Sequence record: NC_101837.1 | Direction: 5' to 3' (one strand) | Length of the DNA: 64,000 nucleotides | Origin: a phage | In this document: positions 31,772-41,616 of the stretch, piece by piece | Layout of the letters: every line of letters begins with the position of its first letter | Position numbering within the stretch: position 1 is the stretch's first letter | Program-made: the position numbers and the translations under genes | Notes under the pieces: model-generated | What the model was told of the DNA's origin: nothing | Databases searched by the model: none | The model's input: the letters and a program-made list of their open reading frames with translations, nothing else

Positions 31772-32053
31772 ATGAAAAAGATTAACAGTAGTGAAGTAGA
31801 GTTTAAACTTGTCGGAAAAGGCACTTACTGGGAAGTTCGTCAAAAGGTATATTTGTTCGGTCTTATTCCCTACTGGTCTAAATTCTACTGGGGAGCTAAC
31901 GAGTTGGGAAGATACGCCACCAAATCAATGGCACTTATTGGTATAGCAGAGTACATTGCAGCCCGAGACAGGGTTGGAACCACTTATTACTACACTGCTG
32001 ACGATATTCGTAACAGTGTTTACGTCCCACAACCACCTGATGGAGACCGTTGA
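31772..32053 (+). CDS. hypothetical protein
   Basis: Tiled ORF. Confidence 0.4.
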   Translation: MKKINSSEVEFKLVGKGTYWEVRQKVYLFGLIPYWSKFYWGANELGRYATKSMALIGIAEYIAARDRVGTTYYYTADDIRNSVYVPQPPDGDR

Positions 32054-32277
32054 TGAAAGTTAAAGTTTTAGATTCAAGCTTCTATATTGGTCAGGAGCCT
32101 TTAGTAGGAAAAGTGTTTACTGCTGTCCCTAACGAAGATTACCCTGACCTTTTAAAAATAAAAGGAGCAGATCTTATTGCCGCTGGTGCATCTCAGGAAT
32201 GCTTTGACAGTCAGTGGACCTATAACTTTGCCCTAGGTGAGGATGTAGAGGTAGTGGAGGACGATCATGAAGGTTAA
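32053..32277 (+). CDS. small acidic protein, MKVK...VVEE family
   Basis: MKVKVLDSSFYIGQ, IKGADLIAAGASQE, ends VEVVEDD. Confidence 0.5.
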   Translation: MKVKVLDSSFYIGQEPLVGKVFTAVPNEDYPDLLKIKGADLIAAGASQECFDSQWTYNFALGEDVEVVEDDHEG

Positions 32278-32521
32278 AATTCTTGATTCTAACGTCTACT
32301 TGGGACAATCCTTCCTGAATGGAAAGGTCGTTCCTGCGGTATACTTTGAAGGGTTGCCGTGGGATGATCCTGTGCGGCAACATCACAGTTATGTAGGCCA
32401 CAACGTGGTGTTTATCTTGGGATCAGACCTGATCACCGCTGGTGCACCTGAATATTATTTCGGGGAAGAGTCCTACTATGCCTTTGGGGTAGGGTCAGAT
32501 GCAGATATTGTAGAGCTGTGA
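32267..32521 (+). CDS. small acidic protein, MKVK...VVEE family
   Basis: MKVKILDSNVYLGQ, GSDLITAGAPE, ends DIVEL; tandem with 32053. Confidence 0.5.
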   Translation: MKVKILDSNVYLGQSFLNGKVVPAVYFEGLPWDDPVRQHHSYVGHNVVFILGSDLITAGAPEYYFGEESYYAFGVGSDADIVEL

Positions 32522-33246: not shown

Positions 33247-33275
33247 TTGACACAACGCTTCAGATTTAGTATCAT
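33247..33275 (+). promoter_or_regulatory. sigma70-like promoter followed by leader hairpin
   Basis: TTGACA, 17 bp, TATCAT; hairpin AGAGGG/CCCTCT at about 33285-33303. Confidence 0.55.
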
Positions 33276-33322
33276 TGTTTTCAAAGAGGGTTTGGTTCCC
33301 TCTTCTTTAAAAGGAACACGTT

Positions 33323-33640
33323 ATGCAAATTGAAATCACTGGCAACGTAGAAATCACTGAAGGTATGGTGTCTTTCATTTCCCACAAAATGTCTAAGCTG
33401 GAGCGTTTGCATCCCTCTGCCAACTATGCACGTGTGAGTGTAAAAGTTGAAAATGATCACCAGGAAGTTATGGCGTTCATTTTTGACAATTCTGGAAAAG
33501 AAGTTATTGCCAAAGCTAAAGGCAGTGATGCTTACGAGGCAACTGACCGTATGGTAGATGTTGCAGCACGTCAACTGGCTAAATGCGGTGGAAAGAGAGG
33601 TAAGGGGAAAGGCAAAGTAAAGATTGACTTTAGAGAATGA
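33323..33640 (+). CDS. ribosome hibernation promoting factor / RaiA (YfiA) homolog
   Basis: MQIEITGNVEITEGM...KLERL...VSVKVEN...AKAKGSDAYEATDRMVDVAARQL is collinear with bacterial HPF/RaiA. Confidence 0.7.
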   Translation: MQIEITGNVEITEGMVSFISHKMSKLERLHPSANYARVSVKVENDHQEVMAFIFDNSGKEVIAKAKGSDAYEATDRMVDVAARQLAKCGGKRGKGKGKVKIDFRE

Positions 33641-33649
33641 GGTGCTACA

Positions 33650-33751
33650 ATGGGTGTGATCAAGAAATTAGTCCCAAATGTAGAGATTGCATGCTTTGAA
33701 ATTATGTTTGCAATCGCAGTTGTAGTTAATGTGTTAGGTTACGGCTATTAA
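33650..33751 (+). CDS. small hydrophobic peptide (33 aa)
   Basis: GAGGTG RBS, MGVIKKLVPNVEIACFEIMFAIAVVVNVLGYGY. Confidence 0.3.
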   Translation: MGVIKKLVPNVEIACFEIMFAIAVVVNVLGYGY

Positions 33752-33777
33752 TATCAAATAATTGAGGAGACCTCTAA

Positions 33778-34138: not shown

Positions 34139-34402
34139 ATGATTGTTTATTTTAAAACTTCAGGTGGATACCCTGATTCTCAAAGCTTGATCGGAAAAAC
34201 GTGCACAGCATACTCACCTCTTGATGAGGAGGTAGGCGATATTCTACGAAATATGTATCGGATTGATCCTCAAGAAGCTTTTGATCAAAACCTTGTATTT
34301 GTCAAGGGCTCAGACATGAAGTCTTTGGGAGCATTCCCTGAAGCAGATGATGATGCCGTTTATTCGTTCATGACCCCTTTTGAAGCTATGGTTGTTGGGT
34401 GA
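34139..34402 (+). CDS. small acidic protein (family-related)
   Basis: VKGSDMKSLGAFPE resembles KG.DL..AGA motif. Confidence 0.45.
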   Translation: MIVYFKTSGGYPDSQSLIGKTCTAYSPLDEEVGDILRNMYRIDPQEAFDQNLVFVKGSDMKSLGAFPEADDDAVYSFMTPFEAMVVG

Positions 34403-34406
34403 TAAT

Positions 34407-34739
34407 ATGAAAGTACGCTTTATTGGTGAAACAATTCCTGTGCATCTCCGGTCGCCTGAGGATTCTGCAGATCTTGCATCTCAAAAGGCGAGAGGTTATG
34501 ATAAGAAAGTAACCTCAACTGATGTAGTGCTTGAGGCTACTAGTCTACCTGACCCTGCTGCATTCTTTAATCATTATGGGTACTATTTCAGCAATCTGAT
34601 GAATATCGGTGAGCTTGTGTTTATTAGTGGTGGAGAAATTGTTAGCAAGCTTGGCGGCGATCCGGATATCTTTCATGAAACCTGTCCTTTTGCATTTGTA
34701 GTAGGTTCAGATGTGGAAGTTATTGAGGAGGTGCGGTAA
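34407..34739 (+). CDS. small acidic protein
   Basis: MKVRFIG start, ends VEVIEE. Confidence 0.45.
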   Translation: MKVRFIGETIPVHLRSPEDSADLASQKARGYDKKVTSTDVVLEATSLPDPAAFFNHYGYYFSNLMNIGELVFISGGEIVSKLGGDPDIFHETCPFAFVVGSDVEVIEEVR

Positions 34740-35134
34740 TGGTAAGCCTATACCGTGTTGAGTATAGCTCAGATACTGTATACAACGTAAGAAGCAAAGA
34801 TCGCAGCGACAGAGTGCAAGAAATGTATGTTCTTGCCGACAGTCCGTTATCTGCAGCGTTCAAGGCAGGGGCTCTTGCATCTCGTTGGAAATTTGAAGGT
34901 GGATCTTTCTATGAAGAAACCCTTGAAGATTCTGTTGTTATTTCTTCTGTAGAGGTTTCAGATGACTACGAAGGGAAAAAGTTCGTAATGCGGCACCCAC
35001 ACAGCAACATTGCGTACTACTGGGATGTTCTGAACAACGAGTGGACCCCAGATCTTCAGAAGGCTACTGTGCTAACACCGTTTTTGGCAGATAAGTTCCC
35101 ACCAGAAGGTAATTTATCCGCACTGTTTCAGTAA
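34739..35134 (+). CDS. hypothetical protein, paralog of 32534..32932
   Basis: RHPHSNIAYYWDVLNNEWTP motif shared with 32534 gene. Confidence 0.45.
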   Translation: MVSLYRVEYSSDTVYNVRSKDRSDRVQEMYVLADSPLSAAFKAGALASRWKFEGGSFYEETLEDSVVISSVEVSDDYEGKKFVMRHPHSNIAYYWDVLNNEWTPDLQKATVLTPFLADKFPPEGNLSALFQ

Positions 35135-39288: not shown

Positions 39289-40663
39289 TAAGTTCTTCTC
39301 TTTTCTTTTACCGAGTAATTCGGGTTTTCTGTTCTCTTCGGTTTGAAGGGGTATGGAGATACACCTGAGTGAACAGGGTGAACAACCGAACCTTTGGCTA
39401 TGGCATTAGCATGGCGAAGCGGACGGGTGACGAAAGAGGGGCCGGAGGACACCAGTCACTGCCATATGATATATGGGTGATAACCTGAAGAGTCTGAATA
39501 AGTGTTTAAGTACCAGTCAGAGGAAAAGGTGAATGGTAGCCGAAGGGGGATGGGGGGTTTCTTGTATCTTTAATTTGTATATTATGTATACACTTGTAAA
39601 CCAATCTCATCTGAATCTGTTTACCACACAAAGCGGATAGAGACAAATATCACCTATTAAACTTGAATTATTTATAGAAAATACCACAACACCAATTAAG
39701 TCTTTGATTTTAAACACAAATCCTACAGATATTCAACCTCCATATTTAACATACTCGTAACATATTCCATACTCTACCTGTCTGATCAATTTACCCAACT
39801 ACATCCCCATATTTTCCCTGTCTGTACTACCCCATCCCCGCCGGGAGTCCCGTCATATCTGGCTTTCCAGCAAATATCACACCCACAAATATCATTGCCT
39901 GAAGAGGGTTTCATCCCATAATACATGCCTTACATGAAGAGCGCTTCATACACCACGTAAATTTTTTAATTGACCTCCCCGCCGCCGGAGAGGTTGGCTT
40001 TTCCCCACACAGACCTGAAGAGTCAGCCAGAAATATCTGAACAGGTCCAGTTCTGCCTTGTCATGAGCCGTAGCGACTGGAGTGCTGCCAGGCGGACGGA
40101 ATGGGAATACTTCTCATTCTTATAATAATTCTCAAATATCGAGGCAGTGAGGCAAATTAATAGGTGAGGCCGTTCACACAGTGGCACAACATTTGCAATC
40201 TATTTTGTGGGGGTGAATGAGAATACCTATCATTGTGAGAACTGTTATCATTACGGGCAATTTAACATAATACCCATTATGCGCACCACTGGCGATCCAT
40301 ACAGGGATTGATAACATGAGTTACAGTTTACGCATATAACAATCATATTTCTTACTATTTGTGTGGGATATAGTTAGCAGCCGATAGATTAGATATTGAC
40401 CTGTGGACTTCCAACCGTCTAGACGTCTAAACGCCCACACAACAAGGATTATACATACATTACTGAATGTAAACAGGGCCGCAAAAATGCTACCATACCA
40501 GTTTGTAAATTTTTCATGCAGCACTTGACAAAGAGAGGAAAAACTTGTCTGACATGCTGGGCATACTTCACACCTTAAACATACTCAACACTGGATACAA
40601 TAACAATTGTTACTATTGCATGCCTCACTGTTCACGTATAGACTATTTGCTCAAAAATGATAA

Positions 40664-40955
40664 GCCATGCCATTCGTTTGCATGATAACAATAACGATCA
40701 ACAACAATAAAGACTGAAATGATAACGTTGTTGATTTGACTGACTAACAATTAACAGGCTAATAATCTATGACATAATATAAAAGCAGGGCAACTATTAG
40801 CAGATCTATAGTTGCCTTGCTTGTTATGTCATGATTAACTAAATACAAGGCAACTATGATCTGATTAATAGTTTGCAGACAAACTATCACGGGGGTGATG
40901 GTTACTGCTTTTATATTATGTCGCGACTCCGTCGCGCCATGCCATTCGTTTGCAT
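40664..40955. repeat. composite repeat: 20-bp direct repeats flanking 18-bp inverted repeats and iteron-like motifs
   Basis: GCCATGCCATTCGTTTGCAT at about 40664 and 40936; GACATAATATAAAAGCAG (40771) and its reverse complement (40905); AAGGCAACTAT-like motif in both orientations between them. Confidence 0.5.
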
Positions 40956-41616
40956 AGTTGCCTTATTGTTACAGATAAAATAATTGTATTGTTAATTATT
41001 TCTTATCTTTCTATTAGTCATCTAATGATTCCAGTTAGTATAGTAACGTACAGTAAACATTAGACGACTAAAGATTTCTCTGATTATGATAACTTGCCGT
41101 GACAATTTCAGACTGTTTACGAAAAATGTTGACACCTGAGCTGATTTATGTTATGCAATTTAAACGAATAATTATTTTATGCAGGTATTGACTATTCTGT
41201 TATCCTATGGTCGGAATAAATACTTAGCAGGCTATAGAATGGTGAGCGTACGTAAATTCTGAGATCTGTCGGCTATAGTTATACTCGATTTTTCACGTAG
41301 AACACGCTTTTTGGTTTGTGTAAGTGTATGACTTATAAAGATTTTTAGTTGTTGACAAGATATTGAAGATGTGCATCAGGTTAAATTTTGTGCAATAGCT
41401 GCATTACGTGCAATTTTGGAAGGAAAACGGGTAAAAATAGCACCGCTACCACACAATGAAAGGTTATGCAATAGTTATTTTACATGTATATTTGTACAGT
41501 GTGTGGGATTGATGGCTCGTCAATTATTCCACTTGCCAGGTAGGGCCGTTTATGGTAGGGAGGAAGAGCAGACAAAAAGAAAGGGACCTAAGCCCCTTGA
41601 TAATTCAGTTAAAAAA

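Follow-up and report, generated by a model that had tools for sequence, protein, structure and literature searches.

Gene and surroundings

The window, the whole 64,000-nt stretch of phage DNA analyzed here (NC_101837.1), encodes on its plus strand a small homolog of the bacterial ribosome hibernation factors HPF and RaiA. An earlier note on this DNA had described a 105-aa open reading frame at 33323-33640, and its coordinates, strand, and ATG start all hold. The features of the locus are as follows.

33247..33275, + strand: sigma-70-type promoter, TTGACA-17 nt-TATCAT, matching 11 of 12 consensus positions and preceded by a conserved AAACTG box
33284..33304, + strand: leader stem-loop, 7-bp stem AAGAGGG/CCCTCTT (33284-33290 with 33298-33304) and 7-nt loop
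33311..33315, + strand: Shine-Dalgarno-like AAGGA, 7 nt 5' of the ATG, read from the sequence
33323..33640, + strand: hpf-like gene, ATG start, 105 aa plus stop, ortholog of rV5 gp139/ORF144
33323..33589, + strand: S30AE/HPF core domain, residues 1-89, beta-alpha-beta-beta-beta-alpha topology by AlphaFold2 and Foldseek
33584..33637, + strand: Lys/Gly-rich C-terminal tail, residues 88-105 (CGGKRGKGKGKVKIDFRE), predicted disordered
33651..33752, + strand: small hydrophobic ORF of 33 aa, starting 10 nt past the hpf stop codon

The gene (33323..33640, +) translates as MQIEITGNVEITEGMVSFISHKMSKLERLHPSANYARVSVKVENDHQEVMAFIFDNSGKEVIAKAKGSDAYEATDRMVDVAARQLAKCGGKRGKGKGKVKIDFRE. A ribosome-binding site is annotated in phage Mangalyan at the spot equivalent to the Shine-Dalgarno-like element. 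The 33-aa downstream ORF is probably co-transcribed with hpf, and both rV5 (ORF145) and WalterGehring list its product as hypothetical; in the sister clade described below, no gene is called at its position. A promoter-like site at 33624-33651, at the 3' end of hpf, is not counted because its -10 element overlaps the start codon of this ORF.

The hpf gene sits inside a long array of small genes, and its neighbors are small proteins to which the records assign no function. The surrounding region of rV5 holds 88 mainly small ORFs in transcription unit 82-163, with sigma-70-like promoters throughout (2013 rV5 genome paper). The GC content of the gene (0.421) matches that of its surroundings (0.428), which says nothing about its origin.

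Source phage and earlier work

Over the 1.2 kb around hpf, identity reaches 99.9% with the Escherichia phages nomine, WalterGehring (BASEL Bas51), and PMBT16 and lies at 90-99% with 117 phage records, which are nearly all Vequintavirus. The window thus comes from a Vequintavirus, an rV5-like coliphage (rV5-like myoviruses are ~136 kb). The gene is present in all 117 of the phage records that hold the region and in every rV5-like coliphage examined, a group that includes BASEL phages Bas50 and Bas51.

The gene was already known. It has been annotated since the rV5 genome (2008) and was expressed and studied by Mizuno et al. (2019). The present gene is the same as rV5 gp139/ORF144 (YP_002003641, ABI79209; protein P0001), with 98% protein identity and R92K and R104G as the sole differences; position, promoter (P144), and neighbors are alike, and nothing substantive differs. 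GenBank entries for BASEL phages call the product a "ribosome hibernation factor" (e.g., WalterGehring bas51_0154), while other GenBank labels are "sigma 54 modulation factor" and "ribosome hibernation promotion factor S30AE". RefSeq, for example for rV5 gp139/ORF144, uses "ribosome-associated translation inhibitor RaiA". This last label is a family-level name and not a subfamily assignment, given 23% identity to RaiA, a score of 17 bits against a RaiA cut-off of 158, and a basic tail.

The 105-aa rV5 protein ABI79209 and those of five sibling phages were listed as HPF carriers by Mizuno et al. (2019, Nat Commun 10:752, PMC6375957), and hpf was described as an auxiliary gene of five rV5 isolates (Mathieu et al., 2020, PMC6969025). 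A literature search found no functional study later than these two. Two further literature matches were set aside: one on TayeBlu, which concerns a Balon homolog, and an unrelated PNAS 2026 paper. What is added here is a selection analysis, a map of contact residues, a sister clade, the lack of RMF in phage records, and a critique of the published binding assay; these are refinements, not discoveries.

Family membership and fold

The proposal that this is a phage-encoded HPF/RaiA homolog is borne out by profile scores above curated cut-offs, by HPF as the best match in the PDB, and by the predicted fold. The profile search that the earlier note had suggested as a check gives a significant family match. 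The protein scores 48.7 bits with Pfam PF02482 (Ribosomal_S30AE; gathering cut-off 23.7), covering profile positions 1-86 of 88, and 46.4 with TIGR00741 (HPF/YfiA family; cut-off 40.9). The best NCBIfam match is the enterobacterial short-HPF equivalog NF007780, at 55.6 bits without reaching the cut-off of 125; the RaiA/YfiA equivalog NF007654 gives 17.2 bits, also short of its cut-off of 158. Membership in the HPF/RaiA superfamily is secure, whereas equivalog status in either the HPF or the RaiA subfamily is not: short HPF is the closest subfamily, and the phage protein is not an equivalog. Descent from the HPF family is virtually certain.

Other resources agree on the family. In PHROGs, the protein falls in phrog_12469, for which no function is given, with a weaker match to phrog_8990, "sigma 54 modulation protein/ribosomal protein S30EA". 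The Pfam search yields no second significant domain (DUF2518 lies below threshold, E=0.11) and no match to the C-terminal dimerization domain of long HPF. The best PDB sequence matches are the E. coli HPF entries 2rql, 4v8h, and 6h4n (E about 1e-11 to 1e-12). Residues 1-89 align with E. coli HPF with two single-residue gaps (phmmer E=5.5e-12), and the collinearity claimed in the note is evident in the aligned MQIEITG-NVEITE, KLE, VKVE, D-x-Y, and RQL segments. Residues invariant or nearly so across the family are present (G7, T12, K22, A63, D69, Y71, and D75, and R83 as well).

A first AlphaFold model from the single sequence was too weak for use (pLDDT 54), and the model used here is an AlphaFold2 prediction from a 24-sequence alignment. 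Its mean pLDDT is 82, with blocks within residues 1-80 at 86-94, and it places strands at 2-7, 33-43, 46-55, and 60-67 and helices at 13-29 and 70-89, in the order beta-alpha-beta-beta-beta-alpha. Residues 91-105 have pLDDT <50 and are predicted to be disordered. In a Foldseek search of the PDB, all 37 top matches (E<=1e-3) are HPF, RaiA, protein Y, or pY; double-stranded RNA-binding domain (dsRBD) proteins come next, below the hibernation factors. The model superposes on V. cholerae HPF (4hei) at 1.0 Å rmsd and on ribosome-bound E. coli HPF (6h4n) at 1.1 Å.

Relatives, divergence, and selection

A word-indexed protein search returned only five close relatives and was too insensitive for placement; an exhaustive HMMER search of 1.84 billion representatives returned 23 matches at E<=1e-3. 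One is a sister protein (P0004) of 103 aa, 64% identical and syntenic in rV5-like contigs of 125-137 kb. The remaining real homologs are bacterial HPFs with at most 45% identity. The second-best match, a 1160-aa protein (P0006), is rejected as a homolog: it consists of tandem repeats, and its score is a spurious sum over eight matched stretches. Identity to E. coli HPF is 41% and to YfiA 23%.

Selection was estimated by the Nei-Gojobori method from the gene in 12 further Vequintavirus loci and the sister clade. An ortholog scan of IMG/VR gave two loci only, and 10 GenBank phage records served instead to sample variation. For 12 Vequintavirus pairs, dN/dS lies between 0.03 and 0.26; dS reaches 0.63, and dN does not exceed 0.03. 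Comparison with the sister clade gives a saturated dS and a dN of ~0.3. The gene is under strong purifying selection, its Lys/Gly tail included, and the protein therefore does something. Some phages (V18, A6-1) read GNNVE, as in E. coli, against GNVE here.

A 64%-identical syntenic ortholog with saturated dS shows long residence in phages, and the gene belongs to an old, phage-resident, diverged lineage. Mizuno et al. suggested that the gene had come from Gammaproteobacteria relatively recently (PMC6375957). Recent transfer from the host is at odds with 41% identity and with a syntenic sister clade at saturated synonymous divergence.

C-terminal tail

The lysine- and glycine-rich tail noted earlier is confirmed at residues 88-105, with a net charge of +5, compared with +2 for the tail of E. 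coli HPF and -4 for that of YfiA. The whole protein has a calculated pI of 9.1; E. coli HPF and YfiA have values of 6.5 and 5.95. This Gly-broken, flexible, polycationic segment stands in place of the end of helix alpha-2. Its K and G codons vary mostly synonymously among relatives, so the tail too is constrained. Only the last two to three residues vary freely (DFRE, DFGE, DFWD, DFE), and the tail is frameshifted in a few isolates (APCEc02 and the P0003 contig).

Ribosome-contact residues

A 2025 cryo-EM preprint on ribosomes carrying HPF or YfiA gives the contacts that recur between these proteins and the small subunit. Lys26 and Gln29 contact the C1496/G1497 phosphates, and Tyr/His30 stacks on A790 (10.1101/2025.10.07.680626). 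Glu51, Thr53, and Val/His62 meet m2G966, while His/Arg55 and Glu60 meet the uS9 C-terminus, and Asp75 is also listed (10.1101/2025.10.07.680626). Helix alpha-2 contributes Lys80, Arg83 (m4C1402), Lys87, Lys89, Lys91, and Lys93, and residue 86 contacts m3U1498 (10.1101/2025.10.07.680626). Mapping these positions by alignment gives the following correspondence (E. coli numbering first, phage residue second).

K23 to K22, K26 to K25, E44 to E43, E60 to E60: kept
D75 to D75, R83 to R83, K87 to K87, K91 to K91: kept
Q29 to R28: R or K is common among bacteria
H55 to F54: F is found in bacteria too
H62 to I62: hydrophobic, like V62
D/E51 to M50: D or E in 12 of 12 bacterial sequences compared
T53 to F52: R in the sister clade
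Y/H/F30 to L29: changed
K80 to V80: T in the sister clade
K89 to G89: changed
K93 to G93: changed

Roughly half of the known 16S interface thus appears conserved, the decoding-center arginine included, while by the same alignment the m2G966 patch and half of the basic track seem remodeled. Along alpha-2, R83, K87, and K91 are kept and K80, K89, and K93 have become V, G, and G, with extra tail lysines following. The beta1-alpha1 loop is one residue shorter in the phage protein. Positions 51, 53, 80, and 89, near-universal in bacteria, are altered in both phage clades; the residues that the two clades have in common include the 16S rRNA contacts K25, R83, K87, and D75.

Promoter and leader

The note had also given the gene its own promoter with a leader hairpin, and the two parts fare differently. 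The promoter, at 11 of 12 consensus positions, is conserved, and the rV5 reference record annotates the same element ("Sigma70-type promoter; P144"). In 13 Vequintavirus leaders, the -35 element TTGACA is invariant and the -10 element is TATCAT or TATTAT, even where the spacer has been rewritten (FV3). The sister clade has AAACTGTTGACA, 17 nt, and then TGC-AATTAT, an extended -10. The box AACTGTTGACA, with at most one mismatch, occurs nine times within the window against 1.9 expected.

The leader hairpin is present but weak. RNAfold gives it -11.1 kcal/mol (z=-0.13 against shuffles), and 85 of 200 shuffled sequences are equally stable. Among Vequintaviruses, the stem ranges from -7.0 to -14.3 kcal/mol and is rewritten or weakened with no clear compensatory pattern; it is missing from the sister clade, and an Rfam search finds no matching family. 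Shuffle-level stability, poor conservation, and the lack of an Rfam match lead us to reject a regulatory element such as an attenuator or riboswitch. The most natural reading is a 5'-terminal stem that stabilizes the mRNA, favored because the stem begins ~2 nt into the inferred transcript, whose start would lie near 33282; the dependence of RNase E on the 5' end underlies this reading. Alternatively, the stem might act as a weak terminator for upstream transcripts.

The published expression experiment

Mizuno et al. made the rV5 HPF gene synthetically and expressed it from pBAD24 (Mizuno et al., 2019, PMC6375957). The host, E. coli NM522, was grown to OD600 = 1, and a sucrose cushion with 500 mM NH4Cl served to purify its ribosomes (PMC6375957). 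No phage HPF peptides were detected in the 70S and 100S fractions, and four peptides were detected in crude extract (PMC6375957). Expression left 100S particles unchanged and 70S profiles normal, with no toxicity reported (PMC6375957). The authors offered three explanations for the non-binding: the wrong growth phase, a true loss of binding, or stripping by salt (PMC6375957).

The same data set shows that host HPF and RMF were found in the crude extract only (Supplementary Data 5) and in none of the three washed-ribosome samples (PMC6375957). Because the wash also lost host HPF and RMF, the experiment has no positive control and its negative result for rV5 HPF is uninformative. It should not be read as loss of function. 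The earlier note had named failure to bind ribosomes as a ground for giving up its proposal, and this assay does not supply that ground.

Host RaiA behaved differently from sample to sample. On washed ribosomes, it is represented by one spectrum in the bS21 sample and by two peptides and six spectra in the bL12 sample, level with S14 and S17 (PMC6375957). It is absent among the 71 proteins of the phage-HPF ribosome sample and present in the crude extract of that strain (PMC6375957). The depth of the phage-HPF sample was similar, with six spectra for S14, six for S15, and two for S17 (PMC6375957). A protein competing for the RaiA/HPF site would lead to such an absence of RaiA; as one unreplicated, unquantified mass-spectrometry comparison, this is a hint. 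Neither the loss of host HPF and RMF nor the absence of RaiA is apparently discussed in the main text of Mizuno et al.

Proposed role and alternatives

The best overall explanation, which we hold with slightly better than even confidence, is a phage-adapted HPF that would occupy 70S ribosomes reversibly and preserve idle ribosomes for the phage. The analysis shows family membership, fold, purifying selection, conservation of the promoter, and the absence of RMF from phage records; ribosome binding, its site and reversibility, the timing of expression, and the payoff are what we infer. The gene would derive from a gammaproteobacterial short HPF that became fixed in the genus Vequintavirus. Host sigma-70 RNA polymerase would transcribe it from its own promoter, which is conserved. 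[quoted passage not shown] Since it has neither an RMF partner nor a dimerization domain, it may act alone, occupying 70S monomers in the manner of RaiA without forming 100S dimers. Its binding would probably be reversible and salt-labile. Half of the basic track and the m2G966 patch appear to have been replaced and a flexible polycationic tail added. The likely payoff would be idle ribosomes that stay intact, outside RaiA and HPF-RMF hibernation of the host, and usable for phage translation.

In vivo, the protein is likely to bind the canonical site on the 30S subunit, given the fold, the retained decoding-center contacts, the purifying selection, and the discounted published negative. If the protein does bind, reversible protective occupancy of the 70S ribosome that pre-empts the host hibernation factors is favored over tight shut-off, because a tight blocker would stop phage translation, no toxicity was reported, and the interface appears partly loosened. 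Should the phage HPF reverse or pre-empt host hibernation, it would bear on the infection of non-growing bacteria and hence on phage therapy.

Several observations weigh against this best explanation, namely the published non-binding, the changed contacts, and scores far below the HPF and RaiA equivalog cut-offs. The RaiA displacement that speaks for it comes from a single unreplicated, unquantified mass-spectrometry run.

An unlikely but related reading makes the protein an anti-hibernation factor, a weakened, fast-exchanging HPF mimic that would evict or exclude host RaiA and HPF-RMF from the decoding channel. The idea was floated by Mizuno et al. (2019, PMC6375957). Such a mimic would be abundant, being expressed from a strong promoter, and easily displaced by initiation on phage mRNA. 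The partial loss of contact surface fits it, as does the absence of RaiA from ribosomes in the rV5-HPF sample only. If it is true, rV5-like phages would be able to use ribosomes that are hibernating in gut E. coli when these grow slowly or are stationary.

It is likewise improbable that the dsRBD-like HPF fold has been recruited to a non-ribosomal target, either RNA or protein, with ribosome binding lost. Divergence speaks for such recruitment: the protein is 41% identical to E. coli HPF, its homologs besides the sister clade reach at most 45% among 23 matches in all, near-universal contacts 51, 53, 80, and 89 have changed in both phage clades, and dsRBD proteins are the next fold matches below the hibernation factors. 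Its lack of association with washed ribosomes (PMC6375957) points the same way, but that assay missed host HPF and RMF too and so had no short-HPF positive control. Conservation between the phage clades of the 16S-touching residues K25, R83, K87, and D75 argues against a new target, and the gene context suggests no alternative partner.

A classic hibernation or shut-off factor that silences ribosomes, one of the two roles raised in the earlier note, is quite unlikely, even though the fold and family are those of proteins that block the tRNA and mRNA sites. Retention of the decoding-center contacts R83, K87, and K91 is consistent with silencing, and the extra basic tail could add affinity; several conserved contacts have nevertheless been lost. 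A blocker of the A and P sites is blind to the difference between host and phage mRNA, so that tight binding would halt phage translation too. Experimentally, E. coli expressing the protein from pBAD24 reached OD600 = 1 with normal 70S profiles and no reported toxicity, and the phage HPF was lost in a wash after which host RaiA was still found in two other samples.

Finally, a neutral passenger, a recently captured host gene without a role in infection as the transfer proposed by Mizuno et al. (PMC6375957) might allow, is scarcely credible and effectively refuted by the selection and distribution data (dN/dS 0.03-0.26; the gene in 117/117 records holding the region), with a 64%-identical syntenic sister ortholog at saturated dS, 41% identity to the host protein, and a conserved promoter also against it.

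Comparison with known hibernation factors

E. coli short HPF (YhbH; PDB 2rql, 6h4n, 6y69) shares its fold with the phage protein and is collinear with it over residues 1-89 at 41% identity. The two differ at K80, K89, K93, T53, H55, D51, and Y30 of E. coli HPF, all of which are replaced in the phage protein, and in the tail, which is 10 residues longer in the phage, Gly-rich, and polycationic. They differ further in partnership: E. coli HPF builds 100S dimers together with RMF, whereas RMF is in no phage record, as judged by a tblastn search of 50,697 phage records with the E. coli RMF sequence, which gave no match. Host RMF could still serve as a partner of the phage HPF.

Long HPF of Firmicutes, Thermus, and others shares the N-terminal S30AE domain but adds a C-terminal dimerization domain, which the 105-aa phage protein, with its single Pfam domain, lacks. 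The S30AE proteins of jumbo phages (Cronobacter phage GAP32, Escherichia phage PBECO4, and Xanthomonas phage XaC1) have the HPF fold in ~110 aa. Their 21-23% identity by structural alignment, unrelated genomes, and different PHROG (phrog_8990, against phrog_12469 for the rV5 group) point to independent acquisitions of HPF by the rV5 group and the jumbo phages.

E. coli RaiA (YfiA, protein Y) is alike in fold, and both it and the phage protein have a C-terminal extension beyond short-HPF length. The extensions differ in character: RaiA has an acidic one (net -4) directed towards the RMF site, and the phage protein has a basic one (net +5). By analogy with RaiA, the phage protein would be expected to sit alone on 70S monomers.

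Published ribosome-wash data

Mizuno et al. expressed the rV5 ortholog of this hpf gene in E. coli and did not find the protein on ribosomes washed in 500 mM NH4Cl (PMC6375957). Neither host HPF nor RMF was detected in any of the washed samples (PMC6375957 Supplementary Data 2-5), so the published "no binding" result is without a positive control. In the bS21 and bL12 samples, host RaiA stays on the ribosomes through washing in 500 mM NH4Cl, whereas ribosomes from rV5 HPF-expressing cells lack it, yet RaiA is detected in the extract of those cells (PMC6375957 Supplementary Data 2-5). Because RaiA is kept in the former samples and missing from the latter ribosomes, these data hint that rV5 HPF competes with host RaiA.

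Genomic neighborhood of hpf

In the window, hpf is followed closely by a small ORF and surrounded by paralogous families of small genes, with an ORF-poor stretch farther downstream:

33651-33752, hydrophobic 33-aa ORF (MGVIKKLVPNVEIACFEIMFAIAVVVNVLGYGY), beginning 10 nt past the hpf stop codon
28491-28724, 32050-32277, 32267-32521 and 34380-34739, acidic-protein family, 75-119 aa
32534-32932 and 34739-35134, second paralog pair, ~131 aa each
39350-41600, ORF-poor stretch, ~2.2 kb

The 33-aa ORF has a GAGG Shine-Dalgarno sequence of its own. A counterpart is annotated in the rV5 and WalterGehring records; it is without annotation in FFH2, and the sister clade likewise has no gene call at this position. 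The two adjacent copies of the acidic family are 40% identical (E=1.6e-14), and the members of the second pair are 28% identical (E=1.9e-8).

The ORF-poor stretch contains few ORFs on either strand, each 50-83 aa long. Going by its distance from hpf, the stretch is equivalent to rV5 104013-106618 (2.6 kb), a region termed "non-coding" by the rV5 genome authors. A search of the entire 64,000-nt window returned no tRNA and no Rfam family.

Annotation of related records

Several GenBank records name the hpf gene "ATP-dependent protease La type I", and those of A6-1 and APCEc02 place the label "sigma 54 modulation factor" one gene downstream. Eighteen records titled "Campylobacter phage" represent Vequintavirus and share 95-98% identity with coliphages; that of A141, the sole one of the 18 opened, is flagged UNVERIFIED. 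One matched "phage" record is in truth a Salmonella houtenae chromosome contig.

Variation in the HPF tail

In APCEc02 (L017) and in protein P0003, the GGA/AAG-rich repeat encoding the tail is frameshifted, giving a 101-aa protein with the C-terminus ...KCGRKKGKGERQSKD. The frameshift may be genuine, or it may stem from misread bases in this low-complexity run.

A sister-clade hpf occupies the syntenic position in four loci from rV5-like phages (Logan/ENA contigs, 15-126 kb):

5001-5312 in L002-L005, sister-clade hpf, 103 aa

The protein is 64% identical to that of the window, a level at which none of the 50,697 genomes in the phage collection gave a match. Its basic tail is different and reads KYSKSKGIDKRTAKWDY.
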